A DNA stretch of 64,000 nt. Source: a virus (taxonomy: Duplodnaviria; Caudoviricetes). Below the pieces are notes generated by a model. The model saw only the letters and a program-made list of their open reading frames with translations. It had not been told where the DNA came from and searched no databases. The DNA is taken from positions 6,383-70,382 of IMG/VR virus record IMGVR_UViG_3300011337_000444; one strand, 5' to 3'. Position 1 is the first letter of the stretch, and each line of letters begins with the position of its first letter. Both the position numbers and the translations under genes were made by a program. Positions 131-61,711 of this stretch are shown piece after piece.

Positions 131-167
131 TGCTAACATTATATTACCGCAATTCAATTTTTTGCAC
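131..167 (+). repeat. Cassette-array end site, copy 1 (CTAAC-A-N-TATATTACCG-N-AATTCAA-W4-TTGCAC)
   Basis: 30/35 identity to 61677..61711; related copy on the minus strand at 50679..50716. Confidence 0.7.
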
Positions 168-186
168 CAATTATAAATCATTAATT

Positions 187-414
187 ATGAATGAATTAGA
201 AGAAAAAGTAATAAGTAGGTTGCACAATTTGAGTACGGAAAACCAACTATCAAACGAATGTTTAGTGCAAATAATTGAAGTATGTGGTTTATATTTGAAC
301 CTTTGTACAATAAGTAAATACGCAAAGGATAATAACATGAGTTATAACGGTGTTAAAAATCATAGAGAAGTAAAGAATATTTTAGGAGTTAAATTTGTTA
401 TTGATAATGATTAG
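187..414 (+). CDS. Small hypothetical protein, possible HTH DNA-binding protein
   Basis: 75 aa; TISKYAKDNNMSYNGVK resembles a short HTH. Confidence 0.55.
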   Translation: MNELEEKVISRLHNLSTENQLSNECLVQIIEVCGLYLNLCTISKYAKDNNMSYNGVKNHREVKNILGVKFVIDND

Positions 415-415
415 T

Positions 416-769
416 ATGGAACAGAAACTAAAAATAATAGATGAGATTGTAAAGTTGCATCCATCTTTAGGAGTAGATAAAGGTTGGAGTTATTATACAG
501 GAGGAATAAAAGATTCTGGGGATTGGTATTTAAGAAAAATGTTAGATGTATCAATAGATGAATTGCAATTGTTTTTAGATAATATAAACCAAAAAACTAC
601 TACTTTTAATAATACAGTAATAGATGATGTTTTAGAAATACAGGTAAATGGAGTAAATTTTAAAATGAAAAAATCTGAACAAGAAGCCTTAAATGAATTT
701 TATAATAAATCAGAAATACACGCCATAGAACATTGGTATAAACTCATCAATACACAATTAGAAAAATGA
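416..769 (+). CDS. Hypothetical protein
   Basis: ORF 395..769; ATG at 416 directly after the previous stop is the likelier start; overlaps the next start. Confidence 0.65.
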   Translation: MEQKLKIIDEIVKLHPSLGVDKGWSYYTGGIKDSGDWYLRKMLDVSIDELQLFLDNINQKTTTFNNTVIDDVLEIQVNGVNFKMKKSEQEALNEFYNKSEIHAIEHWYKLINTQLEK

Positions 770-2832
770 TTGATTACGTAAAAAAAATGCAGTCTTTAGG
801 TTTTAGTGTATTCCCACTAAACACAAAGAAGGAGCCTAACTTCAAGAAGGGAGGAGAGATAAACAGTTATTCATGGATGGACTTTAATGTAAAGACTAAT
901 CCATTTCCTATAACAGAGAATACCGAAAGTAATTTTATTTTCTTAGGTATAGGATGTGGGGATATGAGTAATAACTTAGAGGTTATTGATGTTGATAGCA
1001 AGTATGAGTTGGATCAAGACCTATGGGGAGAATTTAAAGTATTGTTGCAGGATAATTTAGAGGTTTTTGATAAATTGTGCATCGTGCAGACTGTTTCCAA
1101 AGGATACCACGTTATGTACTACTGTGATACTATACAGGGAAACCAAAAGTTAGCGCAAAGGTATCTTTCAAGAGATGAAAAAAACGCTCACTACGTTAAA
1201 CTTACACAAGAAGATAAGATTGATAAGGAAAAAGCTAAAAACCAAGCACAAACAAAGAAACTTACCTTAATTGAAACTAGAGGGCAGGGAGGATATGTTG
1301 CTACGTATCCAAGTGAAGGTTACACAATTATCCAAGGCTCAATGGAAACAATACCTACCATAACTTCCGAAGAGAGAGATATAATCATGTGCTGCGCAAA
1401 AGCAATGGATTTAATTGAAGAAGAAAAGGTAGAAGAAAAGAAAGTTGCTTTGCCGGTATGGGAAGAAGGAAAAAAACCTTGGGAAGCGTATAATGAACAA
1501 ATGAGTGCAGAGGATATGGCTAGTTTATTTGTTTCTAATGGTTACACAATTCCTTTACGAGTAAAAGATAGGATATACATCAAACGCCCAGGAGGTAAAT
1601 CACAGTCAGGTAATATTCGTATTCACGATAAAATTTTTGTAGGTCACTCTAGTAATATACCTTTTGAACCACAAAAAGGATATAGTGCATCAGGTGTATT
1701 TACCATGTTAGAATGTAACGGAGATTTTTCACTTGCAGGAAGAAAGTTACTTGAAATGGGTTTTGGAGATAAACCAAAGAAGAAGCTATCAAATGATTTT
1801 GAGATTTTATCGGAGAAGTTTGAACCGGATAATTACGTAGCTAAAGTAAACTCCAATAGAGATACTATTGAAAAATTCCTACGTGGCGAATTTGGTATGG
1901 GATTACCTACTGGTTATGAATTACTAGATGAATATTATAGATTTAAGTTAGGTAAGTTTGATGTATTCTTAGGACATGAAAATATTGGTAAATCAACTGT
2001 TTTGTGGAATATGATGGTAGTAGCGAATGTGCTACACAATTGGAGAGGGATTATTTATTCAACAGAAAATGATCCATGGGTAATACAAAAACAAATGATG
2101 GAGTTTTTAGTAGGTAAGCAAATGAGTTTGTTTACAGAAAATGAAAAGGAACTCGCTTATAAATGGTTTGATGAAAATTTTGTGATTATTGATAATGAAA
2201 AACTTTTATCGTATAATCAAATTACGCAGGTAGCAGAATCATTTTTATTAAAAAAAGAATACCACGTACTAATGATAGACCCATACAATACCTTATCCTA
2301 CAATTGGGAAGGATTGGATAGAAGAATGGGTACACATGAATATCATCACCACGTGGCTACACAATTCAAACAATGGACAAAAAACATGAATTGCAGTATA
2401 TGGTTATCTATGCACCCTATTACAGAAGCAATGAGAGTGGTAGAAACAACTGGTGAATTTAAAGGTATGCGTAAACCTCCTATTTCTTCACACGCAGAGG
2501 GTGGTGGTAAATGGGTAGCTAAAGCAGATAACTTTATTGTATTACATAGATACACTAAACACGCAACTATGAGGAACATTACATTTTTTGATGTCCAAAA
2601 GGTTAAAGAAACATTTACAGGCGGTAAACCAATGATTGAAGGTAGTGCTTTTAAAATGACTTTAACGAATTACGGTGGCTTTGTTGGGTTTTTTGATGAA
2701 AAAAATTCTTGCCCTTTGCAAGGAATATTCAGAAAAAGATTTATCTTTGGAGAGCAAACAGAAATTCCCAATGATGAACAACCAAGAAGTAGATTATCCA
2801 AATGGTCAGACGACATAAAAGCCCCATTCTAA
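766..2832 (+). CDS. Bifunctional primase-polymerase (Prim-Pol) fused to a DnaB/RecA-type helicase
   Basis: N-terminal LEVIDVD, TVSKGYHVMY and IETRGQGGYV Prim-Pol motifs; C-terminal Walker A GHENIGKST, Walker B LMIDPYN, then LSMHP and ADNFIVLHR. Confidence 0.88.
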   Translation: MIDYVKKMQSLGFSVFPLNTKKEPNFKKGGEINSYSWMDFNVKTNPFPITENTESNFIFLGIGCGDMSNNLEVIDVDSKYELDQDLWGEFKVLLQDNLEVFDKLCIVQTVSKGYHVMYYCDTIQGNQKLAQRYLSRDEKNAHYVKLTQEDKIDKEKAKNQAQTKKLTLIETRGQGGYVATYPSEGYTIIQGSMETIPTITSEERDIIMCCAKAMDLIEEEKVEEKKVALPVWEEGKKPWEAYNEQMSAEDMASLFVSNGYTIPLRVKDRIYIKRPGGKSQSGNIRIHDKIFVGHSSNIPFEPQKGYSASGVFTMLECNGDFSLAGRKLLEMGFGDKPKKKLSNDFEILSEKFEPDNYVAKVNSNRDTIEKFLRGEFGMGLPTGYELLDEYYRFKLGKFDVFLGHENIGKSTVLWNMMVVANVLHNWRGIIYSTENDPWVIQKQMMEFLVGKQMSLFTENEKELAYKWFDENFVIIDNEKLLSYNQITQVAESFLLKKEYHVLMIDPYNTLSYNWEGLDRRMGTHEYHHHVATQFKQWTKNMNCSIWLSMHPITEAMRVVETTGEFKGMRKPPISSHAEGGGKWVAKADNFIVLHRYTKHATMRNITFFDVQKVKETFTGGKPMIEGSAFKMTLTNYGGFVGFFDEKNSCPLQGIFRKRFIFGEQTEIPNDEQPRSRLSKWSDDIKAPF

Positions 2833-2874
2833 TACGTACACAATTAATCTTAATATAAACTAAATCTAAATGTT

Positions 2875-3543
2875 ATGGCTAGAGGAAATCAGCAAACAGA
2901 CAATTACGCTAACTTATATGTGAAGTTAGTAGGCTTGAAAAAAGGAAGCAAGGAGTGTTTCTTTGAGTTTAAGAAAAAAGATGGCGACAAGTATGTTGTT
3001 ATCGAAAATAATAACGCCTTTGATGGTGGTGTTGAAAAAATCGGTTACAAAGAAATCGAAGTAGAGGGTAAGAAAAAACCTGTACTAGAGATTATCTTAC
3101 GTGATGATTTTGCACAGGAAAGATACTTATTAAACTTAGGTATGACTAACGTATCAAGACAATTAATTTCATGTTTAACTACTGCTGATAAGATTGAATC
3201 TTTATCGTTTTGGACAAAGATGGGTGATGCAGGTTTCCCAGTATTTGTAACTAAAGCAAATGGTAGTAATGATAAACTACAATGGGGTTTAGATATGAAG
3301 GCATTAACCGAGAAGTATGTAACTGAACATAAAATCGCAGGAGATATTATTCGTGATTATACTGAATTGGATAAATACTTATTAGGAACTGTGTTACCTA
3401 CGGTTATCGAAAAAGTAGTTGGTTTACCTAAAGCAAGTATAATGACCGCAAAGGATCCTATTGAGCAAGTAACTAAACCTGATATTTACAAAGCATCAGA
3501 GGAATCTTCTTACGAGGAAGAGGATGGTGATTTACCATTTTAA
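2875..3543 (+). CDS. Putative single-stranded DNA-binding protein
   Basis: Follows the helicase; beta-rich N-terminus and acidic tail ending EEEDGDLPF. Confidence 0.65.
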   Translation: MARGNQQTDNYANLYVKLVGLKKGSKECFFEFKKKDGDKYVVIENNNAFDGGVEKIGYKEIEVEGKKKPVLEIILRDDFAQERYLLNLGMTNVSRQLISCLTTADKIESLSFWTKMGDAGFPVFVTKANGSNDKLQWGLDMKALTEKYVTEHKIAGDIIRDYTELDKYLLGTVLPTVIEKVVGLPKASIMTAKDPIEQVTKPDIYKASEESSYEEEDGDLPF

Positions 3544-3558
3544 TTAAATTTTTAATAG

Positions 3559-3649
3559 TAGCGTACCTTCGGGATGTCAGGCTTCACATGGTAAAATCTT
3601 GTGTACAGAGAAAGAAGCCCTTAGCAAACTTAATACCTACGCTATTTTT
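3559..3649 (+). ncRNA. Candidate structured RNA / multi-branched terminator after the SSB-like gene
   Basis: Outer stem TAGCGTA/TACGCTA, cUUCGg hairpin, inner stem GGCTTC/GAAGCC, then a T-tract. Confidence 0.4.
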
Positions 3650-3669
3650 ATTCATACACAATTAGCAAA

Positions 3670-4071
3670 ATGACAAAAGAAAAGGCACTAGAAATTTATA
3701 TGGGTAGCTTCAAGGATGCTAAACAAACCCATTTTGAGTTCATTTGGGGAGTAATACACTCAACGAATAAAGAACAAGATTACAGAATCTTTGTTGATGA
3801 TTTTAATTCGATATTAGAAAGGAATTTCAAGTATGCGGATGTAAAAGCTCAAAGACAATTCAAATCACTTAGAAAAGCAGGATATACAGCCGAAGATGAT
3901 TTAAAAGTATTTAAAGCATTAAGGGATGATAGTTTCCATATGGAATCAGATTATAAATACTGTACTCCCGAATACATTTCTAGGATGAATATCTATGAGA
4001 AATACCGTAATCAATACAGAGAAGAAAAGAAAATAGATTTAAAAAAAGTAATAGGTAATCCATTTAAGTAA
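3670..4071 (+). CDS. Hypothetical protein resembling the conserved C-terminal domain of phage replication proteins
   Basis: GYTAEDDLKV...KYCTPEYISRMNIYEKYRNQ resembles the Phg_2220_C-type pattern. Confidence 0.45.
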   Translation: MTKEKALEIYMGSFKDAKQTHFEFIWGVIHSTNKEQDYRIFVDDFNSILERNFKYADVKAQRQFKSLRKAGYTAEDDLKVFKALRDDSFHMESDYKYCTPEYISRMNIYEKYRNQYREEKKIDLKKVIGNPFK

Positions 4072-4072
4072 T

Positions 4073-5293
4073 ATGAAAAAATATAACGTACTATCTGCCT
4101 TCAACGGAATGAGTTGTGGATATATTGCCTTATCTGAATTAGGATTTGATATTAATAAATATTACATTTCCGAAGTTGATAAACACGCAAATAAAATAGC
4201 GGAATTGATTTATCCTGAAAGTATCTTTTTAGGCGATGTTAGAAAAATTGATGTAGCACAATTAGAAACGATTGATATTGTATTAGCAGGTTTTCCTTGT
4301 ACCGATTTATCCTTTGCAGGTAAAAAATCAGGATTGATTTGTGAGGGATTGGATGAATATATGGAACTAAGGGAGGAATACCTACAAACTAATGATGAAA
4401 ACCTTTATTTTTATAACGGTAAATTCCAACAGTCAATTTTGTTTTATGAGTTTCTACGTATTTGGAATGATGTAAAGAAAATTAATCCTAACGCATTGTT
4501 TTTAGTGGAAAATGTAAAAATGAAACAAACAGAGGAATTAAAGATTAGTAAGTTATTAGGTATGCACCCAATTAGTATAAACGCTAAATTAGTAAGCGCA
4601 CAATCACGAGATAGATTATTTTGGACTAATATTGCTAATAAGCCTTTAGGTATGTTTGGAGATATTTATATTGATATTCCACAACCTAAAGATAGAGGGA
4701 TTTATTTAAAGGATATTTTAGAGGACCAGGTGGATGAAAAGTATTTTTTGAGTGAGAAAATTGTACAAGGATTTTTAAAGCACAAAGAAAGGCATAAGGA
4801 AAAAGGTAACGGTTTTGCTTTTGAGCCGAAAGATGTTATGCAGAAATCTAACACGTTAAAAACAATGGAGGGTAAAAGAAACACAGATACCTACATCAAA
4901 ATTGACAAAAAAGGTAATATTAAATCAAATCAGGATAAAGCAAGTTGTTTTACAGCAGGTGGAAATAGTGGAGGAAATCACTCTGATATGGATTTAATCA
5001 TAACCCACAACCTACAACCACGTTCGGGTAAAGGTAAAGGCGGTAAAGGGCATTTAAGTAAAACCGATCAAAAAAGTTATTGTTTGGATACTGGAAATAG
5101 TCAAGGTTTGGAGATAATTGGTAAATCCAACATCCGTAGATTAACCCCACGCGAAGCAGGAAGATTACAATCAGTACCAGAACCTATTTTGGATTTAATG
5201 TTAAGTAGCGGTGTAAGTGATACGCAACTCTATCGTTTGTTCGGGAATGGGTGGTGTATAGAGGTTATTAAACACATTTTAAATTTTATATAA
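4073..5293 (+). CDS. C5 cytosine DNA methyltransferase
   Basis: Motif I VLSAFNGMSCG, catalytic AGFPC, ENV, QSRDRLFW, RRLTPREAGRLQ and FGNGW. Confidence 0.93.
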   Translation: MKKYNVLSAFNGMSCGYIALSELGFDINKYYISEVDKHANKIAELIYPESIFLGDVRKIDVAQLETIDIVLAGFPCTDLSFAGKKSGLICEGLDEYMELREEYLQTNDENLYFYNGKFQQSILFYEFLRIWNDVKKINPNALFLVENVKMKQTEELKISKLLGMHPISINAKLVSAQSRDRLFWTNIANKPLGMFGDIYIDIPQPKDRGIYLKDILEDQVDEKYFLSEKIVQGFLKHKERHKEKGNGFAFEPKDVMQKSNTLKTMEGKRNTDTYIKIDKKGNIKSNQDKASCFTAGGNSGGNHSDMDLIITHNLQPRSGKGKGGKGHLSKTDQKSYCLDTGNSQGLEIIGKSNIRRLTPREAGRLQSVPEPILDLMLSSGVSDTQLYRLFGNGWCIEVIKHILNFI

Positions 5294-5294
5294 C

Positions 5295-5876
5295 ATGAAA
5301 AAAACAGTACAAGTTGATTTCTCTGGCGGAGAATTTATCATCAAATTTAGAAAGATTGATGAACTACAAGAAAAAGTAGATTTATTAAGAAACAGTTTAA
5401 AGCGAGAAGCAAACACAATTAGAGGTATTTTAAACGAATACCACAACACAGATGTAGAGGTTAACGGTAGAGAAATAACTTACAGCGAAGTATTATCCGA
5501 TAACGCTAAACGTTTAATCCATAACAGTAGCCAAGTTACTAATAACTTAGAGCTGATGGAAATTGAAGTTATGCGCCCTAAAGTAGATTACTTTGAAAAG
5601 ATAGTACAATGGGGTAAGGATAAAGGGATATTAGATCATGGAACGGTGGCTATGCAATTCGCTAAAATAATCGAAGAAGTAACCGAACTAGGCGAAGGTA
5701 TAGAGAATGAATCCACAGAAGAGATAGAGGATGCAATCGGTGATATAGTTGTCGTATTAACGCTCTTATCTAAAATGTGTAATATGAATATCGAAGATTG
5801 CATAAAGAGTGCTTACAATGTAATTAAGAACAGAACCGGTCGAATGGAGAATGGACAGTTTCTAAAAGATAAATAA
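5295..5876 (+). CDS. MazG-like NTP pyrophosphohydrolase domain protein
   Basis: C-terminal QFAKIIEEVTEL...EIEDAIGDIVVVL all-alpha EExxE/ExxD pattern. Confidence 0.85.
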   Translation: MKKTVQVDFSGGEFIIKFRKIDELQEKVDLLRNSLKREANTIRGILNEYHNTDVEVNGREITYSEVLSDNAKRLIHNSSQVTNNLELMEIEVMRPKVDYFEKIVQWGKDKGILDHGTVAMQFAKIIEEVTELGEGIENESTEEIEDAIGDIVVVLTLLSKMCNMNIEDCIKSAYNVIKNRTGRMENGQFLKDK

Positions 5877-6488
5877 ATGAGAACTAAAATAAACATGGTA
5901 GGCAAAACCTATGGAAAATTACTAATACTTGAAGAGGTTAAAGAAAGAGATAGCTACGGATATATTTTATACAAATGTAAATGTTCCTGCGGTAAAGAAA
6001 AAATAATTCGAGGTCACAATATAAGGTCAGGAAACTCTTTATCGTGTAGTTGTTCGAGGATTCAACCAAACTTAAAGCACAATATGTCATATACTGCAGA
6101 ACATAACGCATGGAGAAGCATGAAGAAAAGGTGTAAGAATAAAAACGATCCAAGATATGAAGATTACGGAGGAAGAGGAATAAAGGTTTGTGATAGATGG
6201 ATTAATTCTTTCGAAAACTTCTTCGAAGATATGGGTTATAAACCAAGTAAAAGCCATTCCATTGAAAGAATTAATAACGATGGCGATTACGAACCTTCAA
6301 ATTGTATTTGGGCTGATGTTAAAACACAAGCTCGTAATAAGAGAACTTCTATGAAAATTTTATACGAAAACAAAATTATAGATATTTTTTTATTTAGTGA
6401 AATAATGAACTTATCTGTGTCGGGAGCTAAGAAACGTATTTTTAGAAATTACAAACTCACTGATGGAATATATTTGAAATATAAATAA
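5877..6488 (+). CDS. Free-standing HNH-type homing endonuclease
   Basis: YKCKCSCG, YGGRGIKVCDRW and SIERINNDGDYEPSNCIWA are typical of phage HNH endonucleases. Confidence 0.85.
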   Translation: MRTKINMVGKTYGKLLILEEVKERDSYGYILYKCKCSCGKEKIIRGHNIRSGNSLSCSCSRIQPNLKHNMSYTAEHNAWRSMKKRCKNKNDPRYEDYGGRGIKVCDRWINSFENFFEDMGYKPSKSHSIERINNDGDYEPSNCIWADVKTQARNKRTSMKILYENKIIDIFLFSEIMNLSVSGAKKRIFRNYKLTDGIYLKYK

Positions 6489-6521
6489 AATCTATAAATA
6501 AAAGTTTTAATATAAATAAAT

Positions 6522-6551
6522 AAAATAGGTTTTCTTAGGGGAGCCTATTTT
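6522..6551 (+). terminator. Intrinsic terminator
   Basis: AAAATAGG...CCTATTTT stem after the HNH gene. Confidence 0.6.
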
Positions 6552-6574
6552 AGTTTAATAAATTTGATAAAAAT

Positions 6575-50598: not shown

Positions 50599-50614
50599 GT
50601 TATTCTTTTTTTTA

Positions 50615-50622
50615 CAAATATA
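50615..50622 (-). promoter_or_regulatory. Bacteroidota sigma70 -7 element
   Basis: TATATTTG, 17 nt upstream of 50598; an AATTGTGCAAC motif lies at 50628..50638. Confidence 0.55.
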
Positions 50623-50642
50623 TAACTAATTGTGCAACTATC

Positions 50643-50674
50643 AAAAAAAGCATACCTTTCTAAAAGTATGCTTT
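50643..50674 (-). terminator. Intrinsic terminator
   Basis: AAAGCATAC/GTATGCTTT stem with a T-tract on the minus strand. Confidence 0.7.
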
Positions 50675-50678
50675 CTTA

Positions 50679-50716
50679 GTGCAATTTTTTGAATTGTATA
50701 AACATTGATGTTAGTT
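50679..50716 (-). repeat. Cassette-array end site, copy 2
   Basis: AACTAAC ATCAATGTTTATAC AATTCAA AAAA TTGCAC, immediately after the stop of 50717..51097. Confidence 0.55.
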
Positions 50717-51097
50717 TCAATCTTGTAAAACGAGTTCTTTACCAACAAGAGCAAAATAAAAGTTCTGCAACTGGTGGACGTACTCTAACATTACAGATGA
50801 CCCGTAATCGGTAAATTTTCCATCACGAATAACAATTAATCTATTATTGTACCTATATTGATTTGGTTCTCCGTTATCAAATTCATACTTTTCAAATCCA
50901 AATCTTAAAAGCCAATCTTCATCTAGTGTAATTGGTTCTAAAACTTCAAAGCTTAATAAACACTCGCCAATTTGATACCAATTTGAGCTAGTCCATTTAA
51001 AGTCAAAGTAATTCAAAGTATCATTACCTTGCATAGTAGACCATTGTTGTGTGTGATGAAACCAGTTACCTATTCTTATTTCGTTTTCATTAATCAT
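50717..51097 (-). CDS. Hypothetical protein (cassette-like)
   Basis: NEIRIGNW...EPITLDEDWLLRFGFEK; flanked by ATTAGTT and AACTAAC core-like sites. Confidence 0.75.
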   Translation of the reverse strand: MINENEIRIGNWFHHTQQWSTMQGNDTLNYFDFKWTSSNWYQIGECLLSFEVLEPITLDEDWLLRFGFEKYEFDNGEPNQYRYNNRLIVIRDGKFTDYGSSVMLEYVHQLQNFYFALVGKELVLQD

Positions 51098-51128
51098 TAT
51101 TACTCAAATTTACGGTTTACAAAAAAAA

Positions 51129-51190
51129 AACTAATACCACCTATGCGCAAGCTTTGTTCTTTAGTCGTGCATATAGCTTTATCGTTATCA
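51129..51190 (-). mobile_element. attC-like hairpin site
   Basis: TGATAAC at the stop codon, CTATATGCA/TGCGCATAG stem, ATTAGTT (degenerate GTTRRRY-like core). Confidence 0.45.
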
Positions 51191-54492: not shown

Positions 54493-54598
54493 GATTATTA
54501 ATCGAGTGATATATAACCATTGGCGAAATATCAAACGTTTGGCACGTGCGAAATAAATAGGCTTAATCCCTTTATTGTCTATCTATCTTTATTAACTT

Positions 54599-54952
54599 AT
54601 GGGCTTTGATAAAGATTTAACGGGAAAATTCGCAATTAAATATAGTAAATCGCATTGCATCCAATTACATAAACACTTAACAGAAAAGCGCATAAGTAAA
54701 TCGCATCTTTGTTTTATTCTCGATGTATCAGCAACAGAAACAGCAACACGATTAATAAACACTCCGTATAAACTTACTTTACAGCAATTAATTAATTTAT
54801 CTTTTGCCCTTAATCTTTCTTTAGCTGATTTAGTATTGGTTATTACGGAAGATTTTAAAAATTGTGCATCAACCTTTGATCCTGATTTAATTAATTTTGT
54901 TCCGCCTCATTTACGAGAACTAACTAAATCTAATGAATGGTTTGATCGTTAA
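54599..54952 (+). CDS. XRE/Cro-like HTH regulator
   Basis: ISKSHLCFILDVSATETATRLINTPYKLTLQQLINLSFALNLSLADLV. Confidence 0.65.
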   Translation: MGFDKDLTGKFAIKYSKSHCIQLHKHLTEKRISKSHLCFILDVSATETATRLINTPYKLTLQQLINLSFALNLSLADLVLVITEDFKNCASTFDPDLINFVPPHLRELTKSNEWFDR

Positions 54953-55133
54953 GCTAATTGTGCAACGTCCTTTTTTTGCCAGTATTACGCCTTTTTTAAA
55001 ATTGATCCTTTTTTTTTGCGCTTAATATTTGCGCTTTTTTCTTTGTAATCCTTTTTTTTATAAATTAATATAAAAATTTTCTCATTGATTTTCAAGTAGT
55101 TACAAAAAACTTTAAATTTTTCTTTGATTTTAT

Positions 55134-55165
55134 TTTGATATATCCAAAGTATATACATATCTTTG
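55134..55165 (+). promoter_or_regulatory. Early sigma70 promoter (-33 TTTG, 20-nt spacer, -7 TATCTTTG)
   Basis: Full consensus, 50 nt upstream of 55215. Confidence 0.75.
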
Positions 55166-55214
55166 TTTCATCAAGTTAAACAAACAATAATTTAACCTTT
55201 AAAATTTAAAAATC

Positions 55215-55652
55215 ATGAAAAATCAAACAAAAGTAATCAGTAACATTAATGCAAATAAAAACCTTTTAAAAAGCATTAATCAATCATTTTACGGTAATGA
55301 TTTAAACGAAAAAATACAAATGTTTATTGACAATGCAAATAGGTACATTAAAGCAATTGAGGAAAAGCGCGTCTTTTGTATCATTTATAAAGTATCTGCA
55401 AGCGGAATGAGTAGAAATTTAGCCTTTTTTGAACATAGTTTTAACGCTAAGTATAAACAAGGCAATATATATAATTTTCATTGCTTGTTTAAATCTTTTG
55501 GATATACAGAAGCTAGAGAAGGTTTTAGGATTAACGGTTGCGGAATGAATATGGTATTCCATACTAATTATAGTATTATACATCAATTGAATAGTTTGGG
55601 CTTTAATATGAATTGTCCAGTCTTAGCACAAAGCACGCCTTCAACTTTTTAA
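55215..55652 (+). CDS. Conserved phage early protein of unknown function
   Basis: KVSASGMSR...INGCGMNMVF pattern. Confidence 0.7.
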   Translation: MKNQTKVISNINANKNLLKSINQSFYGNDLNEKIQMFIDNANRYIKAIEEKRVFCIIYKVSASGMSRNLAFFEHSFNAKYKQGNIYNFHCLFKSFGYTEAREGFRINGCGMNMVFHTNYSIIHQLNSLGFNMNCPVLAQSTPSTF

Positions 55653-55765
55653 ATTCGTCTAAGCGAATTAAAAAAGGCTTTTAAGCTTAGAGCGTTTACA
55701 TGGGTATTAAAAGCCCATGTAAGGTAGCAAATAACAAATTGTATAATCTTTAAAATTTAAAAACT

Positions 55766-56047
55766 ATGTTGATCTTAAAAATTGAATTACAAAACACTAT
55801 ACATACCATTGAAAAAATAAATGGTGCCTACTTAGTAGAGAGTAAATTTACTGACGATGCGAGTAGTGGAGAGGTATTCGAGTATAACTCACTACTGGAG
55901 GCGCAAAATCATGTAAACAACGAAATTAAGGAATACACTCGATTAATGGATAATTTGCATAATACTTTGCTTTTAGCCTTAAACTACTCTCAAAGGTTAG
56001 GTTTAGATATTAGTGCAGATATTAATGGGCTACTGGATAACTTTTAA
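55766..56047 (+). CDS. Hypothetical early protein
   Basis: AT-rich leader TTTAAAATTTAAAAACTATG. Confidence 0.7.
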   Translation: MLILKIELQNTIHTIEKINGAYLVESKFTDDASSGEVFEYNSLLEAQNHVNNEIKEYTRLMDNLHNTLLLALNYSQRLGLDISADINGLLDNF

Positions 56048-56080
56048 AAAAATTGTGTAACAACCTTAAATTTTAAAAAT

Positions 56081-56275
56081 ATGGAAACTATTAAAGCAAC
56101 TCCCAATTATTCAAAAAAAACCTTTACAATTCGCAAATTTGAGGGTAAAAAATTAGTAAGTAAATTCAAAACTTTTGCGCTAGATAGCGAAAATTTTAGT
56201 ACTGGATTATACATGACTACAAATGACTGGCAATTTTTCTTAAAGCATAACCAAAATTATAAATTAATAAAATAA
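56081..56275 (+). CDS. Hypothetical early protein
   Basis: 64 aa, same leader type. Confidence 0.65.
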   Translation: METIKATPNYSKKTFTIRKFEGKKLVSKFKTFALDSENFSTGLYMTTNDWQFFLKHNQNYKLIK

Positions 56276-56280
56276 AAAAA

Positions 56281-56442
56281 ATGCAAGAAATAAAAACAAC
56301 TTTAGCAGGTTTAAAAAAGCAAAATTTAAAAACCTTTATTGTATTGAAAAACAAAACTCAATATATTTTAAAGGCGCAAAATTTAATACAAGCCGAGCGC
56401 CTGGCTTTTATTTATGGCGCGGAAATAATTAAACAACTTTAA
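56281..56442 (+). CDS. Small early protein (not in the ORF track)
   Basis: MQEIKTTLAG...GAEIIKQL, 53 aa, fills the gap between genes. Confidence 0.55.
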   Translation: MQEIKTTLAGLKKQNLKTFIVLKNKTQYILKAQNLIQAERLAFIYGAEIIKQL

Positions 56443-56453
56443 AATTTAATATC

Positions 56454-56699
56454 ATGAAAAATTACAAATTAAATTTAACTGACTGTCAACAAATAATTGA
56501 TAAATATGTTGAATATGGCGGGTATATTGAGCAAATTAATGAGGGATGTTTAGGATTAGGATTTTTAATCTTACATGGCGCGCCGGGAAAAAAAAGTATA
56601 ATAATTCAGGAATATTTTATAAATAGTTGGCAAAGTGGGCACAACGTTAAAATGTACAACAAATTACCTAAAAAATACCAAAAATTAATTAACAACTAA
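56454..56699 (+). CDS. Hypothetical early protein
   Basis: 81 aa; IQEYFINSWQSGH. Confidence 0.7.
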   Translation: MKNYKLNLTDCQQIIDKYVEYGGYIEQINEGCLGLGFLILHGAPGKKSIIIQEYFINSWQSGHNVKMYNKLPKKYQKLINN

Positions 56700-56759
56700 A
56701 TTTAAAGCCCCTCTGGGGGCTTAATTAAACAAGTATAAACAACTTTAAACTTTATAGCC

Positions 56760-58070
56760 ATGAACACAAACAACAAACATTTAATAAAAGCAGCGCAAAA
56801 AAGCAAAGTTTTAAACTTTAATGGTAAGTATGCTTTATACGTTAAAAATGAGGTTCAATTTTTAACGCCCTCTAATACTGGTAAATTTGTAAACGGTAAC
56901 TTTGTTAATGATCCTAGTATTGAGTTGACAGATTTTGAGGTGCCTATTCCTAATTGTGCACCCATCTTAGAGGGGCAAAAATTGGAGGAACTAAAGCCAT
57001 GGATTAAAAAAGCTTTTAATTTTGTTGGCAAAGATGATTTGCGACCTGTTATGAGTGGCGTTTTAATCGATAAAAATTGTATCGTTGCAACTGATGCCCA
57101 TATTTTATATAAAAAACAATTTGAACACGAAATTTCAAACGAAAATATAATATTAAACGCGCTTACTTGCCAATTAATAGATGATGTAAAGGCTATTTAC
57201 AAACTTGATGAATCTAAAAACAAATTTATTGCTTTGCTTAATTGCGGAACTATTATAACATATTGCAATATTCAAGAAAAATATCCTAATTACAATGCAG
57301 TAATACCAACGGAATTTGATGGTAGTTTTACTATAAATTGTGTATCCACCGAATTTAAAGATGCTTTGAAATTAAATAATAGAGTAATGCCTACTTTAGC
57401 CTTTAATACCGAAATAAATAAAGCGTATTGGCAAAATGTAGATAATGGATTAAGCGGAGAGTTTGACATTAAAGATGGTAAAAATAAAAGTTCAAATGAA
57501 TTAATTATGCTTATGTGCATAATGGTAAAAGAATTTAAGAATTGTAACATAGGTTTTAATCAAAAATTTATAGATAAAATAAGCAAAGTTACAAAGCAAA
57601 ATGATTTAGTTTTAAACTACAAACCAAACAAACCAACAGTAATTTATATTTCTGAAACAACAAACAAACCAACTAAAACCAAAAAAGTTATGCAAGAAAA
57701 ACCAAAACAAAGCGTAGATACTGATATTTTATCCGCTTTAATGCAACAAATTAACGCCTTATCTCTGCAAGTAGCCGAGCTAAAAAATCAACAAATTAGC
57801 ACCCCGAAAAATGAAATTGAACCTATTAAAAAGAGTGCAAAAATTGAGGAACAAAAGCCGATTGAAACGGTTAAACCAATTATCCACGTACAACAGTATT
57901 CCGATAAAAGTTTAATCGTTTATGGCGATACAAAACAAATAAAGGATCAACTAATGCAATTACACGCTCGTTTTAATCCTTACCTAAAACTTAATGATGT
58001 TAAAACGCCTGGCTGGATTGTATCGGTAAAACATGAAGGGGCTATTAATCAAATTGTGCAAGCATTATAA
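56760..58070 (+). CDS. Protein with a DNA polymerase III beta-clamp-like region and a C-terminal YSDKSLIVYGDTK domain
   Basis: KDDLRPVMSGVLID...IVATDAHIL...EKYPNYNAVIP matches the beta-clamp domain II-III signature. Confidence 0.7.
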   Translation: MNTNNKHLIKAAQKSKVLNFNGKYALYVKNEVQFLTPSNTGKFVNGNFVNDPSIELTDFEVPIPNCAPILEGQKLEELKPWIKKAFNFVGKDDLRPVMSGVLIDKNCIVATDAHILYKKQFEHEISNENIILNALTCQLIDDVKAIYKLDESKNKFIALLNCGTIITYCNIQEKYPNYNAVIPTEFDGSFTINCVSTEFKDALKLNNRVMPTLAFNTEINKAYWQNVDNGLSGEFDIKDGKNKSSNELIMLMCIMVKEFKNCNIGFNQKFIDKISKVTKQNDLVLNYKPNKPTVIYISETTNKPTKTKKVMQEKPKQSVDTDILSALMQQINALSLQVAELKNQQISTPKNEIEPIKKSAKIEEQKPIETVKPIIHVQQYSDKSLIVYGDTKQIKDQLMQLHARFNPYLKLNDVKTPGWIVSVKHEGAINQIVQAL

Positions 58071-58128
58071 ATTTACAGCCCCTCCGGGGGCTAAACTAAA
58101 CAAGTATAAACATTTAAAATAAATAACC

Positions 58129-58278
58129 ATGAAAGCAATTGAAATTTTACAAAACATTAAAGAGAATGGCGGATTTGACAATTTTAGAAATTGGACACGC
58201 AAAGAAAAAAAACAATGGGTAAAGGCAAATTTCCCTTGTTCCGATTATGTAGCAGATAAAGTAAGCTATTCAATTTAA
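58129..58278 (+). CDS. Small early protein (not in the ORF track)
   Basis: MKAIEILQNIKENGG...KVSYSI, 49 aa, between two hairpin repeats. Confidence 0.6.
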   Translation: MKAIEILQNIKENGGFDNFRNWTRKEKKQWVKANFPCSDYVADKVSYSI

Positions 58279-58329
58279 CTTTACAGCCCCTCTGGGGGCT
58301 TAATTAAACAACTTTAAAACTTAGAAACC

Positions 58330-58866
58330 ATGCAAAAAGTAAACAAATTTAGAAAAACAGTTGCTCTACAAGTAATTGAAGAAAAAAGGCGAATTAATAG
58401 AGTAATGCTTGAAATTATAGGAGCCGTTAAAACCGTAGAATACAAAAACTTTACGCCTCCAGTTGGTGAACAAATTAAAGCTAAAAATTCAATATTCGTT
58501 TACTTAGCAGATAGCTACAAATATAATAGTAGCTACGGTATTACTCACAATGTAACTCCCATTGATGGAAATGAGCGACCGATTAAAAAGTGTATTGAAT
58601 TGGATTATTACAATTATGTTACTGTATTAAACAATTTTAAAATTAATCTAGGTAGCATTGAACAATACCACAAAAAAAATCTGTATGATATTTTTATCCC
58701 TAAATTTAATTCAGGTGCTAATAAGGAACTCTATACCAAATTGTGCATTGATATTTTTAACGATGCTGCAAAGGAATTACAAGCTTATAGAGTTGAAAAA
58801 CAAAAGCTGGTTGATGATGCGTTTATGTTCCACTTTGGTTTTTATGTTAATAGGGCTTTTTATTAA
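58330..58866 (+). CDS. Hypothetical early protein
   Basis: 178 aa, repeat-derived leader. Confidence 0.7.
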   Translation: MQKVNKFRKTVALQVIEEKRRINRVMLEIIGAVKTVEYKNFTPPVGEQIKAKNSIFVYLADSYKYNSSYGITHNVTPIDGNERPIKKCIELDYYNYVTVLNNFKINLGSIEQYHKKNLYDIFIPKFNSGANKELYTKLCIDIFNDAAKELQAYRVEKQKLVDDAFMFHFGFYVNRAFY

Positions 58867-58896
58867 GGAAATTGTGTAACTTTAATAAAAAAAACT

Positions 58897-59067
58897 ATGG
58901 CAAACTTTGACGAAAAACTACAAATCGCTTCCGTACTTGCAGCAGAGGATTATTTACTTACAACTATTGAGGAAATGGAAAACGTAAAAACAATTGGCGC
59001 AAAGCGTAATTACATTTACGAAATTACCCTATACGAATTAATAAAAAACTTTGTAAACTTAAACTAA
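58897..59067 (+). CDS. Small early protein (not in the ORF track)
   Basis: MANFDEKLQIAS...KNFVNLN, 56 aa. Confidence 0.55.
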   Translation: MANFDEKLQIASVLAAEDYLLTTIEEMENVKTIGAKRNYIYEITLYELIKNFVNLN

Positions 59068-59068
59068 A

Positions 59069-59251
59069 ATGATAACTGAAAACCAATTATTCAATCCAAA
59101 ATTAGTATCTATCCAAAAGGATTATATTAAAGTTGTAAACTGTATTGTATCCTGTAAAACACTAGATCAACAAATCAACGCAGAAAAAATGAAGGAATTT
59201 TTTAAGCGTAAACATATTACTAATCCGTTTTATTCAAAATTTCAATTTTAA
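59069..59251 (+). CDS. Hypothetical early protein
   Basis: 60 aa, coupled to the previous ORF. Confidence 0.55.
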   Translation: MITENQLFNPKLVSIQKDYIKVVNCIVSCKTLDQQINAEKMKEFFKRKHITNPFYSKFQF

Positions 59252-59254
59252 GCT

Positions 59255-59428
59255 ATGATAATATATGCGAGCTTGGTAAATATACCACTAGATGAACTAA
59301 AGCGAAAATACACGCCTTTAAATGCCGAATTAACAATAAAGGAAGTGCAGGAACTTGCACAATTAGTAAAAATCAAAACAAACAAACTATGGGAACTAAT
59401 CGAATCAAAAACAATATTGTTTCAGTAA
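59255..59428 (+). CDS. Small early protein (not in the ORF track)
   Basis: MIIYASLVNIPL...KTILFQ, 57 aa. Confidence 0.45.
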   Translation: MIIYASLVNIPLDELKRKYTPLNAELTIKEVQELAQLVKIKTNKLWELIESKTILFQ

Positions 59429-59505
59429 TAGAAACTGTTTACTTATATGCAATACTAGTTATTGTGTGGGTAAATTGTGTATCAATCTTTAAGAAAAAAT
59501 AAGCT

Positions 59506-59796
59506 ATGGAAAATTATCAGGAATACAAAAAGATAAAAGGCGAAATTGATGCAGTACTGGATACTTTGCATGATCGACTTAATTCATTCCCTAAATCTAG
59601 TTTAGGTGGTGTAACAGATGAAGTTAGAAAAACGCCTGAATATATAGAAACTAAAAGGCAATGGAATAAATACTGGTCCTTGTTAAGATCCATTAATCAA
59701 ATTGGCGTGAAAAAGTTTAAAAAGGAAATCCAAAAGGAATACCAAGATAAAATAAATGCTGCCAATAAAAAACACAAAGAAAATTTAATAAAATAA
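59506..59796 (+). CDS. Hypothetical early protein
   Basis: LNSFPKSSLGGVTDEVRKTPEY pattern. Confidence 0.7.
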   Translation: MENYQEYKKIKGEIDAVLDTLHDRLNSFPKSSLGGVTDEVRKTPEYIETKRQWNKYWSLLRSINQIGVKKFKKEIQKEYQDKINAANKKHKENLIK

Positions 59797-59797
59797 C

Positions 59798-60010
59798 ATG
59801 GCTACACAATTAGACTACGTGGTGGAACTAGAAAAGCAAACAAAAATACTAAGTAGGCTAAGGATTGAAAAGGAACAATACATTAACGCCCCTAAATACG
59901 TTCGTAATTCAAATGAATATATCCTGTTCATGCTAGAATACCAACGAACATTTTTTAAGGTGGCACAGATAAAAAAAATACTTAAAAATAAATATGGGTA
60001 TGAAGAGTAA
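59798..60010 (+). CDS. Hypothetical early protein
   Basis: 70 aa, coupled to the previous ORF. Confidence 0.6.
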   Translation: MATQLDYVVELEKQTKILSRLRIEKEQYINAPKYVRNSNEYILFMLEYQRTFFKVAQIKKILKNKYGYEE

Positions 60011-60104
60011 AATTGTGCATCAACCTTACACAAATTTTATCAACATAGTATATATTTACTAGATTTATTGTATATATTTACACACAATTTTAAACTTTAA
60101 TTTT

Positions 60105-60239
60105 ATGTCAAACACAAAAAATAGAACACTTATCTACCTGGATGAGGAAATGAAGAAAAAAGCTAAACAAAAATCTAAAGAAATTTTAGGAAAAGAAAAC
60201 CTTAGCGCATTAATTACTTACCTTATAAATAAATTGTAA
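60105..60239 (+). CDS. Ribbon-helix-helix DNA-binding protein (not in the ORF track)
   Basis: MSNTKNRTLIYLDEEMKKKAKQKSKEILGKENLSALITYLINKL: strand-helix-turn-helix pattern. Confidence 0.7.
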   Translation: MSNTKNRTLIYLDEEMKKKAKQKSKEILGKENLSALITYLINKL

Positions 60240-60267
60240 TCATTAATAAAAAAAATAACAAAAAAAA

Positions 60268-60579
60268 ATGAAAGTACAAATAAAAATCAACTACGCAGAA
60301 GCAACAAAAGGACAAATTTTTGAAGTAGTAGAAATTCAAGGCAAAAGAGTAACCGTAAATATTAACGGTAGAAATGTAGATTTTGGATTTAGTGAGGTGC
60401 AAATAGTTGCACCCACTAATTCTGACCTTTTTAATTTAGGGCGTGAACTTTTAATGATGGGGTCAAAATCACTGCAAGGGTGGAGAGAAAACGATGTAAC
60501 AAACTTTATATCAGAAATAAATTTACCAATGTCAAAATCAATGATGCGTAAATCAATAAATAATGCAGTATGGGGTTAA
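60268..60579 (+). CDS. Hypothetical protein with an SH3/KOW-like N-terminus
   Basis: KGQIFEVVEIQGKRVTVNINGRNVDFGFSEV. Confidence 0.65.
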   Translation: MKVQIKINYAEATKGQIFEVVEIQGKRVTVNINGRNVDFGFSEVQIVAPTNSDLFNLGRELLMMGSKSLQGWRENDVTNFISEINLPMSKSMMRKSINNAVWG

Positions 60580-60734
60580 TTAAAAAAACAAGGGGAGGCA
60601 CTCGGCAAGGGTTGGGTGCTAAACCTAAATATAATGAAGAAACTAAAACGGTTTCTTTTCGCTGTCCAGTGTCAAAAGTTGAAGAACTGAAAATTATTGT
60701 AAAGTCTAAACTTTCGGAGTGGTCGGTAAAATAG
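60570..60734 (+). CDS. Small DNA-binding protein, GGxRxG basic arm plus RHH-like part (not in the ORF track)
   Basis: MGLIKKTRGGTRQGLGAKPKYNEETKTVSFRCPVSKVEELKIIVKSKLSEWSVK. Confidence 0.7.
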   Translation: MGLIKKTRGGTRQGLGAKPKYNEETKTVSFRCPVSKVEELKIIVKSKLSEWSVK

Positions 60735-60735
60735 C

Positions 60736-60870
60736 AGCTAACATAAAAGTATAAAAGCAGGTGGGGGATTGAACGCCTAACACATTCCGACTTGCACAAA
60801 CGATAATAAACTGGCGAAGTGGTTAAAATTAGCACATAACCCCCACTTGATTTTATACATTGTTGTGTGC
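60736..60870 (+). mobile_element. attC-like hairpin site (135 bp)
   Basis: AGCTAAC ... GTATAAAAGCAGGTGGGGG / CCCCCACTTGATTTTATAC ... GTTGTGTGC. Confidence 0.6.
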
Positions 60871-60879
60871 AGTTATTTT

Positions 60880-61131
60880 ATGAATTGGAGAGATATAAGT
60901 AAGGTTGGACTGCCTTTAGACAACAATAAAAGTTATTTGGTTACGGATGGCAAAGAGTGCTCGACAACCAACATTAATGTTAGAAAAAATTACAACACAG
61001 GCGAATCAACATTTTTACGTTGGACTGGAGATGAAAACACCTACGAAGATAATCAATGTTGTAGTGGGACACCTATGTTTGATTTAGTGCCTACACATTG
61101 GATACCAACGGACGAGATTCCTTTGCCATAA
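60880..61131 (+). CDS. DUF551-like hypothetical protein (cassette-like)
   Basis: MNWRDISKVGLP...PTHWIP; ATG at 60880 follows the core-like site. Confidence 0.65.
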   Translation: MNWRDISKVGLPLDNNKSYLVTDGKECSTTNINVRKNYNTGESTFLRWTGDENTYEDNQCCSGTPMFDLVPTHWIPTDEIPLP

Positions 61132-61239
61132 TTGCGCATTAATTACTTACCTGATTAATAAATTGTAATGGTTTCGGCTTGGCGAAGGCTGGGATTAGAA
61201 GCACAAATTTTTAAAATAAAAAAAATAACAAAAGGAATT

Positions 61240-61428
61240 ATGACAAATCAACAGCAAAAAAACTTATTCGTTGGTGCAAACGAACAGCAATTATTGAAAA
61301 TCAAAAAACAAGATGATATTGAAAAAACATATATGGAATTTGTAAGAGCAAATCCTAATTTGTCAATGGAAGAATATGAAGCTAAATATAAATCATTAAA
61401 CTCGGCTATTATTTTTACAAATTGTTAG
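61240..61428 (+). CDS. Small hypothetical protein reading into an attC-like right arm
   Basis: ATG at 61240; the stop TAG lies inside GTTAGGC. Confidence 0.55.
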   Translation: MTNQQQKNLFVGANEQQLLKIKKQDDIEKTYMEFVRANPNLSMEEYEAKYKSLNSAIIFTNC

Positions 61429-61440
61429 GCAACGTAATTT

Positions 61441-61680
61441 ATGAAACTATACAATGTTGAAGTAGAAGCCAGTTACGAAACATCATACGAGGGCGAAATA
61501 AACACAAGTTATACAAGGTTAGTTTTTGCTGATACTGAAAAAGAAGCTATTGACTTTGTAAATGCAGGATTAAAACACTTAGATAAGGTTTGGCATATAT
61601 ACGAAAAAGCAAAAACGGCATACGAGGTAGATGCTACAAAAGGAGAACGTAAAAGGAAAGCTCAATTTTATGTTGCCTAA
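61441..61680 (+). CDS. Hypothetical protein in a cassette bounded by inverted core sites
   Basis: GTTAGGCAACGT upstream and ATGTTGCCTAAC downstream; the stop TAA lies inside GCCTAAC. Confidence 0.75.
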   Translation: MKLYNVEVEASYETSYEGEINTSYTRLVFADTEKEAIDFVNAGLKHLDKVWHIYEKAKTAYEVDATKGERKRKAQFYVA

Positions 61681-61711
61681 CAGTATATTACCGAAATTCA
61701 AAATATTGCAC
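61675..61711 (+). repeat. Cassette-array end site, copy 3
   Basis: GCCTAAC AGTATATTACCGAAATTCAAAATATTGCAC. Confidence 0.7.

Follow-up and report, generated by a model that had tools for sequence, protein, structure and literature searches.

Three cassette-like gene clusters in the 64,000-nt stretch of DNA analysed here (the window; positions 6,383 to 70,382 of IMG/VR record IMGVR_UViG_3300011337_000444, a Caudoviricetes genome that we call G000) end in similar short sequences, which raises the question of what kind of site this is and how it is connected with the genes on either side of it. That the three sites are alike, as the original prediction held, was confirmed for sequence, position and strand, and the likeness lies beyond chance: the core AATTCAA-W4-TTGCAC has three exact matches in the window versus 0.00 in 100 shuffles, and no fourth exact match exists anywhere in the whole 70,382-bp record. 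Sites 1 and 2 share 84% identity over 38 nt (repeat family D20). The sites and the features around them are as follows (window coordinates unless stated otherwise).

Record 4907-5557, outside the window: serine recombinase gene, located before the methyltransferase gene (Pfam Resolvase, 3e-31)
1..124 (record 5712-6506), plus strand: 3' end of an N6/N4 DNA methyltransferase gene (Pfam N6_N4_Mtase, 9e-23)
122..167, plus strand: site 1, the 'home' copy, consisting of a TAG stop, TATTAC-TGC, TAAC, an A+T box, CCGC and AATTCAA-TTTT-TTGCAC
187..414, plus strand: p75, which opens the replication module and encodes a predicted 75-aa winged helix-turn-helix protein
265..281: O2, a second palindrome like that of site 1, within the p75 ORF, where it encodes VQIIE
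About 50612-50638: canonical late-operon promoter, following the site-3 terminator
50639..51185, minus strand: strain-specific cassette, consisting of a hairpin of about 70 nt, the p126 ORF (50717-51097), site 3 and a terminator
50643..50674, minus strand: intrinsic terminator after site 3 (-19.1 kcal/mol, z -3.1)
50679..50716, minus strand: site 3, a solo copy of the 14-nt-spacing subtype, ending the p126 cassette
60396..60413: another perfect palindrome of the same family, with 7-4-7 geometry (GGTGCAA-ATAG-TTGCACC), located in a 929-bp insert specific to G000
61428..61439, plus strand: inverted sequence that pairs with the 5' arm of site 2 (GTTGCCTAAC) at 11/12 positions, on the far side of ORF 61441-61680
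61671..61711, plus strand: site 2, a solo copy of the same 13-nt-spacing subtype as site 1, ending a rightward cluster of small genes
61728..61761, plus strand: intrinsic terminator after site 2 (-19.8 kcal/mol, z -3.1)

Across about 28 contigs (uncultured phage or MAG) we found 32 distinct copies of the element, with the consensus (TAG-TATTGCC-N)-TAAC-N14-ARTTCAA-W4-TTGMAC, in which TAAC is followed by an A+T-rich box, ACGC and the 6-4-6 palindrome ARTTCAA-W4-TTGMAC. The spacing from TAAC to the core is 14 nt in 28 of these copies and 13 nt in the other four; site 2 matches site 1, while site 3 resembles the sites of other lineages in both spacing and sequence subtype. Every copy is intergenic and oriented as its flanking genes. 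Each of the three sites is a copy of a single conserved and oriented cis-element, about 37-50 bp long, which genomes normally carry once. Its 5' half is asymmetric and strongly conserved (TAAC, A+T box, ACGC), and in its 3' half TKCAA-N4-TTGMA forms a 6-4-6 palindrome that is imperfect in G000 and perfect in many relatives. Palindromes of this family number five in the record versus 0.69 expected. The sites had been described as non-hairpin and devoid of a partner arm, which is true insofar as RNA folding revealed no stable fold of the palindromic half in the G000 genome (site 1, -3.4 kcal/mol, z 0.0), but does not fit the dyad symmetry of the 3' half and fails for site 2, whose 5' arm has its inverted partner 240 nt upstream. 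The proposed placement of TAAC at or near a stop codon proved correct: site 2 holds the TAA stop of ORF 61441-61680 inside CCTAAC, the TGA at site 3 lies 2 nt upstream of CTAAC, and the TAG at site 1 lies 9 nt upstream.

The usual place of the element is the boundary between an accessory slot and the replication module, just upstream of the p75 start. Of the 27 classified sites, 20 have p75 as their downstream gene, and its ATG lies 1-4 nt past the palindrome in most relatives (range 1-19 nt in 20 contigs); at site 1, which has no terminator, it starts 19 nt downstream, and p75 is followed by a PrimPol-helicase gene. In G002, which is 83% complete, the site is present and p75 is absent from the recovered part. 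The p75 family comprises 74 clusters, every one of them annotated as hypothetical, and p75 of most relatives shows only 45-60% identity, with 14 residues invariant in the alignment and no Pfam match. The AF2 model (pLDDT 90) predicts an H-H-H-t-H plus beta-hairpin fold, for which Foldseek returned weak matches, mostly to winged helix-turn-helix regulators. From this predicted fold and the adjacency of gene and element, we infer that p75 may be the protein that binds the palindromes, putatively as a dimer.

A palindrome of the O2 type recurs within p75, 92-114 nt downstream of the first. Across 20 p75 homologs, its codons are Ile ATT in 19/19, Glu GAA in 19/19 and Gln CAA in 14/14 cases, Val is encoded by GTT or GTG only and the next Leu by CTN in 12/12, whereas elsewhere ATT and Leu CTN make up about 37% and 31%, respectively. 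Moreover, one homolog has an E-to-A change, yet keeps a TTGCAC variant of the palindrome. O2 is preserved by synonymous codon choice. The dyad site directly upstream of a helix-turn-helix gene (20 contigs), together with O2 as a second site, corresponds to the layout of an operator. Autoregulated small helix-turn-helix regulators with paired palindromic operators are exemplified by restriction-modification C-proteins and Cro-type repressors; p75 is similar to them in its size of about 75 aa, in the palindrome just upstream of its own gene and in the second site nearby, and DNA methylase genes are frequent neighbours of the p75 locus. It differs in having a predicted winged helix with no sequence relation to C-proteins, in the location of the second site within the ORF, and in having no restriction endonuclease partner.

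On the other side of the element, the genes change. The predicted combination of variable upstream and fixed downstream sequence was borne out at loci of the site-1 type, where the upstream ORFs (27 sites) form at least 15 clusters unrelated to one another and are often DNA methylases, and it was also seen at two other locus types. For 20 of 25 upstream ORFs, the stop is the TAA of the element or the TAG located 12 nt before it; the element gives a stop codon to whichever gene arrives in the slot. This accessory slot is filled by the N6/N4 methyltransferase in G000, by a 97-aa ORF in G003 and by a C5 methylase in G001. Between G000 and G003, whose flanks are 95-97% identical, the interval from the recombinase to site 1 is occupied by different genes and homology restarts exactly at TAAC, and the slot is an exchange hot spot for methylases and orphan genes even between genomes this similar. 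In G002, the last 290 bp of this N6 methylase gene are found together with the site (85% identity to G000); homology stops exactly at TTGCAC, from which point G002 is joined to the late operon. In comparisons of G000 with G003, G001 and G002, indel or replacement end points fall at TAAC (window position 134) and right after TTGCAC (167 and 61709). Gene borders account for most of the 130 mosaic junction ends.

Sites 2 and 3, each of which ends a strain-specific cassette, are additional and dispensable copies. Both are missing in G001 and G003, and site 3 also in a relative from run X13; at site 2, homology restarts right after TTGCAC. As these nearest relatives lack the sites together with the adjacent genes, the empty alleles have no site, and persistence of the element without its cassette is seen at the site-1 locus and not at sites 2 and 3. 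The terminators reported directly after these two sites are real (z about -3 for both), and the one after site 2 is kept in G001 and G003 although these are site-less. The p126 cassette is an indel with identical boundaries against G001, G003 and the run X13 contig, and is flanked by a 10-bp direct repeat, TTTTTTGATA. The p126 protein matches phrog_10066, and a contig binned to Sediminibacterium has two p126 paralogs immediately ahead of a site-p75 locus, which means that p126 and the site are found together in two unrelated contexts. Morons and the gene-boundary mosaicism of lambdoid phages are described by the Hendrix/Juhala model, and the unit of hairpin, ORF and terminator at site 3 resembles a moron in that it is present in one phage, between genes that are adjacent in G001, G003 and the X13 relative, from which it is cleanly missing, and has its own terminator but no clear promoter; it differs in also carrying a copy of an element whose home is elsewhere. 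At the solo sites, which stand at operon ends before terminators, an operator would have no obvious job.

We place about half of our confidence in the element being a regulatory sequence, probably the p75 operator, that doubles as a short-homology crossover point for module shuffling. It would be a protein-binding site, most likely an operator pair for a p75 dimer, and would control the entry of transcription into the replication operon. The crossover role is proposed because the element is often the sole conserved sequence between unrelated flanks, and it would explain the endless replacement of upstream genes, the genes that end in the element's stops and chimeras of methylase, site and late operon. 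Crossover may proceed via the phage's RecE-like exonuclease system, together with selection for intact units; besides this exonuclease, a RusA-like domain is encoded by the phage. The closest parallel is the PeSL (promoter-early stem-loop), a mobile regulatory cassette of T4-type phages (Arbiol et al., 2010, PMC2839356; Comeau et al., 2014, PMC4122927), whose motifs mediate the same kind of shuffling (PMC2839356). As with PeSLs, a short conserved intergenic regulatory motif recurs at the borders of small non-essential genes, the end points of insertions, deletions and replacements between near-identical phages fall at the motif, short homology would serve modular shuffling, and terminator hairpins belong to the unit at sites 2 and 3, although there is none at site 1. 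Unlike PeSLs, which are many per genome, the element is normally single-copy, is tied to p75, bears an operator-like palindrome and has no recognisable sigma-70-like or Bacteroidota-consensus promoter. A symmetric dimer leaves the asymmetric conserved 5' half (TAAC, A+T box, ACGC) unexplained. Crossover inside an element of 40-50 bp is indistinguishable here from illegitimate recombination filtered by selection, and at the G000/G002 junction there is no homology on the right, which simple homologous exchange does not explain.

Variable genes upstream of a fixed gene, sharp boundaries and upstream ORFs that terminate in the element's own stop codons would also be expected of a site-specific, att-like recombination site with cassettes inserted upstream of it, as in the reversed integron of the original prediction, with recombination catalysed by the small serine recombinase close by or by some unrecognised enzyme. 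In the G000 clade the slot spans from the recombinase stop (GCTAACG) to the site, two G000-specific cassettes share a common plan of homologous 70-nt hairpin, ORF and site, a run X5 contig diverges right after AGCTAAC at window position 60742, and the 11/12 inverted arms bracket ORF 61441-61680. Arrays of small ORFs parted by imperfect hairpins with ...CTAAC at the start and GTTAG... at the end recall integron attI/attC sites, as does GCCTAAC at one site, which equals the attC inverse-core consensus. However, a PF00589 search of the 70-kb record gave 0 matches, with positive controls in 14/14 genomes, and hence no IntI-type tyrosine integrase accompanies the sites; sites 1-3 have CTAAC with no downstream GTTAG arm, the polarity is reversed, and the site-3 indel is edged by TTTTTTGATA rather than by TAAC. 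A resolvase/invertase-type gene located before site 1 at a distance of about 1 kb, several dyad-symmetric subsites within about 150 bp and copies in both orientations are reminiscent of res, hix and gix systems, but the recombinase was found in G000-G003 only; neither the complete genome G005 nor any other of the site-bearing loci searched has it, and in G002 no site lies beside it. The 16-bp palindrome also differs in geometry and is shorter than the typical crossover sites of serine recombinases. The left boundary of the element lies at two different places, and at the 130 junction ends TAAC (26 vs 25.7 expected) and CTAAC (3 vs 3.7) are not enriched. No inversion or deletion joints were seen at the sites in four public runs, as represented by assembled contigs, which drop rare variants. 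Given that sites 2 and 3 are not fixed, that a tyrosine integrase is absent and that the recombinase is confined to one clade, a fixed docking site of a reversed integron is not upheld, and we regard an att-like site in general as very unlikely. Much the same low probability applies to a fixed target of a gene-capture system that does without an integron integrase and inserts hairpin-plus-ORF cassettes just upstream by means of an unrecognised recombinase; the serine recombinase of the G000 clade, an enzyme of the host or p75 in an accessory role would be candidates. If true, dedicated cassette capture would be a new kind of phage gene-acquisition system, with an 'accessory gene port' placed before the replication module in freshwater Bacteroidota phages.

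Two further readings concern the function of the element at its home locus. The -33/-7 promoters of Bacteroidota have a spacing of 19-21 nt, which TAAC-N21-W4TTG mimics, and a promoter reading therefore competes: TAAC would stand for the -33 and W4-TTG for the -7 element of a phage-specific (middle-class) promoter, recognised by the RNA polymerase of the host together with an alternative sigma or a factor made by the phage. The fixed distance from TAAC to W4 (21 nt, and 20 in four cases), the constant co-orientation and intergenic position and the short distance to the p75 ATG suit this reading, under which p75 would often be translated from leaderless or near-leaderless mRNA, and sites 2 and 3, with terminators right behind them, would give rise to short RNAs that terminate there or to read-through by antitermination, as at lambda PR'-tR'. 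The middle promoters of phage phi14:2 have an extended tripartite motif (bioRxiv 10.1101/2020.03.07.982082). Nevertheless, the element contains neither TTTG nor TAnnTTTG, sites 2 and 3 are absent in close relatives with the same downstream genes, the late operon already has its own canonical promoter, the palindrome within the p75 ORF suits an operator better, and the proteins scanned included no phage RNA polymerase or sigma factor; we consider a promoter unlikely. Still less probable, in our view, is a replication-origin or architectural (IHF-like bending) site bound by the primase-helicase or a host nucleoid protein, even though the element stands at the head of the replication module, with the p75 and PrimPol-helicase genes following directly, and the two spaced palindromes lie in A+T-rich surroundings. 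The core TCAA-N4-TTG is similar to the E. coli IHF consensus, WATCAANNNNTTR, but the symmetry of the element argues against IHF. An origin needs neither strict co-orientation with transcription nor a position flush with the upstream stop, solo copies at the ends of accessory cassettes would not be expected of it, and a repeat search found no iterons.

The element is a previously undescribed cis-element whose proposed partner is an uncharacterised, predicted winged-helix family, p75, and the two mark where the replication module begins. In annotation it can be used to locate the accessory slot, p75 and the boundary of the replication module, and it offers a testable case of a short regulatory sequence organising mosaicism in uncultured freshwater Bacteroidota phages.

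The three sequences on which the original prediction was built were confirmed at their coordinates (w, position in the window, which spans bases 6383-70382 of the record; G000, the whole 70,382-bp IMG/VR virus record), as were their relations to stop codons. The 17-nt core AATTCAA-W4-TTGCAC gave three exact matches, as compared with none in 100 shuffles, and no further exact copy was found elsewhere in the whole record. Moreover, the terminators after sites 2 and 3 are real (-19.8 and -19.1 kcal/mol, respectively). The description required two corrections: the element does not fold, as had been stated, but its 3′ half is an imperfect 6-4-6 palindrome, and the claim that the sites have no partner arm fails at site 2, whose 5′ arm has an 11/12 inverted partner across ORF 61441-61680. 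The observation is thus confirmed. Its interpretation, a reversed integron-like system, receives partial support: the behaviour at the junctions is real, and there is no support for integron-like machinery. The relevant features are as follows:

w122-167 (+), site 1
w61671-61711 (+), site 2
w50679-50716 (-), site 3
w187-414 (+), p75, a 75-aa winged-helix gene
w265-281, second palindrome of the element's type, within p75
w187-12135, replication module, reached by the rightward direction
w50717-51097 (-), p126, an ORF next to site 3
near w54 kb, divergent promoter region that drives two small-gene operons
w53695 to 50717, leftward small-gene operon, continuing into lysis and structural genes
w54599 to 61680, rightward small-gene operon, then more small genes, serine recombinase, N6 methylase and the replication module
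record 4907-5557 (w -1475..-825), serine recombinase of the resolvase/invertase type, 216 aa

Genes of the record (G+C approximately 31%) include those for terminase, portal, giant virion proteins, several DNA methylases, a PrimPol-helicase and a RecE-like exonuclease, next to which lies a 236-aa gene. Its last 127 bases (70256-70382) repeat bases 1170-1296, and bases 1-1169 look like a diverged version of the stretch preceding the record end; the assembly is probably circular and continues into a strain variant. The closest relative, G003 (63.3 kb), has a 127-bp end overlap, and in the complete phage genome G005 the overlap is 123 bp. Given the end repeat of G000 and the end overlap of G003, the genome is effectively circular in assembly. 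It is present in riverine and freshwater metagenomes and, at 100%, in runs labelled 'organism A', which may derive from a culture; RNA runs contain <12% of the sampled words (contigs only). Its primase shares only 28% identity with the primases of the Cellulophaga phages phi38:1 and phi40:1. Compared with G003, the replication module carries two G000-specific insertions, an HNH endonuclease (w5877-6488) and a C5 DNA methylase (w4073-5293), of which the relative G001 has a homolog at another location. A full-length Pistol self-cleaving ribozyme (w55653-55729, +; Rfam RF02679, 60.3 bits, gathering score 34.5) is located between a pair of small ORFs in the rightward early operon. The 8-mer [AG]CACAATT occurs in 105 copies in 70 kb, mainly on the coding strand (e.g., w752, w3656, w50635(-) and w41719(-)), often 3-8 nt 5′ of start codons (..ACACAATTAGnAAATG), and also constitutes the -33 region of the late promoter.

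In viral contigs and species genomes, scanned with the pattern and searched from protein anchors, we found 32 distinct copies of the element in approximately 28 contigs, the element-bearing bins being Flavobacterium, Sediminibacterium, Chitinophagales and 'Bacteroidetes' MAGs. The consensus reads (TAG-TATTGCC-N)-TAAC-N14-ARTTCAA-W4-TTGMAC, with a spacing of 14 nt in 28 copies and 13 nt in 4, and an Rfam search at the sites returned no known RNA family. A p75 homolog is the next gene after the element at 20 of the 27 classified sites, and in most relatives its ATG lies only 1-4 nt past the palindrome, despite a protein identity of 45-60%. The TAAC-N21-W4TTG geometry and the asymmetry of the 5′ half could belong to a promoter as well as to an operator. 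We also considered the sites as truncated versions of the long hairpin elements and rejected this reading, as CTAAC is the sole sequence common to both.

At the home locus, where a slot for accessory genes is followed by the element, p75 and the replication genes, clustering of the upstream ORFs and a comparison of four genomes bore out the expectation that upstream content varies and downstream sequence stays fixed. Clustering placed the upstream ORFs in at least 15 unrelated groups, one of them a methylase cluster with 7 ORFs. The two flanks of the swapped slot are 95-97% identical between G000 and G003, and the slot itself, from the recombinase stop to TAAC, contains an N6 methylase in G000 and a 97-aa ORF in G003; in G001 the slot upstream of the site holds a C5 methylase. 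The relative G002 shares with G000 the final 290 bp of the N6 methylase together with the element; identity there is 85%, as compared with 73% for the genome on average. The homology ends exactly at TTGCAC, and in G002 the element is joined at this point to the late operon. Inversion between sites 1 and 3 does not explain the G002 arrangement, in which the primase directly follows the recombinase on the same strand; a simple inversion would not yield this order. In 20/25 cases the upstream ORF terminates either with the TAA in TAAC or with a TAG located 12 nt before it; the element thus supplies the stop codon of the upstream gene. Two further locus types share the polarity of the home locus: in one, the site is followed by approximately 170 nt and a late promoter, and the upstream genes differ between G002 and the phage contig G004; in the other, found in contigs L051, L057 and L116, the site is followed by 58 nt and a 92-aa ORF, again with differing upstream genes.

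Sites 2 and 3, which had been proposed as possible fixed docking sites at the ends of gene arrays, are not conserved: G001 and G003 lack both, and a relative in metagenome run X13, for which uncovered early-region stretches were not counted, lacks site 3. The search for empty alleles that had been suggested led to alleles in G001 and G003 in which the site is absent together with its cassette. The stretch w50639-51185, comprising a hairpin, p126, site 3 and the terminator, is missing with the same boundaries in all three relatives, and these boundaries fall at a 10-bp repeat, TTTTTTGATA, and not at TAAC. At the site-2 locus, G001 and G003 carry a different gene of approximately 200 aa and no site, and homology with them restarts directly past TTGCAC, at a conserved terminator. 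Site 2 has the same TATATTACCG box as site 1 and the same spacing of 13 nt, which is rare; from these features site 2 looks like a copy made within the clade. As direct repeats 61.5 kb apart, the two were also considered as attL/attR or genome ends; this reading was rejected, since they are only 84% identical and the close relatives G001 and G003 lack site 2. In site 3 the spacing is the common one of 14 nt, and the site is similar to those of other lineages (G002 and contig L065). Because a MAG contig binned to Sediminibacterium has p126-family genes directly 5′ of a site followed by p75, the p126-plus-site block plausibly moved as a unit; the p126 homologs in 18 viral contigs have no site nearby, and this MAG contig is the one that does.

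Could the element itself be a substrate of site-specific recombination? The right side of the G000/G002 junction lacks homology, one contig of run X5 diverges directly past AGCTAAC at w60742, and inverted arms flank ORF 61441-61680, all of which would be in line with such a mechanism. Nevertheless, no tyrosine recombinase was found in the record, and the serine recombinase next to the slot was found only in G000-G003; neither G005 nor any other locus with the site has it, and in G002 it occurs without an accompanying site. Moreover, (C)TAAC is not enriched at 130 mosaic junction ends, and contigs of four public runs, which may miss rare forms, contained no joints at the sites. We consider a site-specific mechanism at the element improbable.

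The recurring border linkers and the RecE-like exonuclease point to modular shuffling by short homology, which would resemble that described for the PeSL cassettes of T4-type phages (PMC2839356). The G000-specific methylase and p126 cassettes both start with homologous hairpins of approximately 70 nt. The imperfect hairpin at record 5553-5625 begins at the recombinase stop codon (GCTAACG...GTGTTAGC), and its homolog at w~51120-51190 (-) precedes p126. Among the other short linkers that recur at the borders of cassettes is a 36-bp direct repeat (94% identical; w60205-60240 and w61134-61169) on either side of a 929-bp insert, which is specific to G000 and holds three small ORFs; in G003 the repeat occurs once, with a different gene after it. 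In the rightward small-gene array (w55221-57044), contigs of runs X1, X5 and X11 contain alternative joints that skip 458, 822, 1005 and 255 bases, so that co-occurring strains differ in cassette content there. In the same runs, w60586-60742 (ORF 60570-60734) shows approximately twice the surrounding depth and loose ends on both sides, the right one exactly past AGCTAAC; hence these samples contain the segment in a further context as well.

The gene that follows the element, p75, has 14 invariant residues in the alignment and a predicted helix-helix-HTH fold with a beta wing (pLDDT 90), for which Foldseek returned weak matches, mostly to winged-helix regulators. No Pfam family covers it, every one of its 74 database clusters is annotated as 'hypothetical', and it is absent from cultured phages in a search of 50,697 phage records. 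A second palindrome of the element's type lies within the p75 ORF, 92-114 nt downstream of the first. We compared the codons in the palindrome columns with those in the other columns among 20 distinct p75 homologs.

Codon choice at the internal palindrome and elsewhere in the p75 gene
Ile: ATT 19/19 at the palindrome; ~37% ATT elsewhere
Glu: GAA 19/19 at the palindrome; mixed elsewhere
Gln: CAA 14/14 at the palindrome; mixed elsewhere
Val: only GTT or GTG at the palindrome; GTA common elsewhere
Leu, codon after the palindrome: CTN 12/12; ~31% CTN elsewhere

In one homolog Glu is replaced by Ala, and the alternative half-site TTGCAC is retained. Judged from this codon usage, the internal palindrome is constrained at the DNA level. 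The record contains five such palindromes against 0.69 expected, an approximately 7-fold enrichment; a 103-aa ORF with the fourth palindrome was considered as a p75 paralog and dismissed, as the search gave no alignment. A small HTH gene whose start is bracketed by two spaced dyad sites is the classical arrangement of an autoregulated operator pair, and we infer that p75 is a putative binder of these palindromes.
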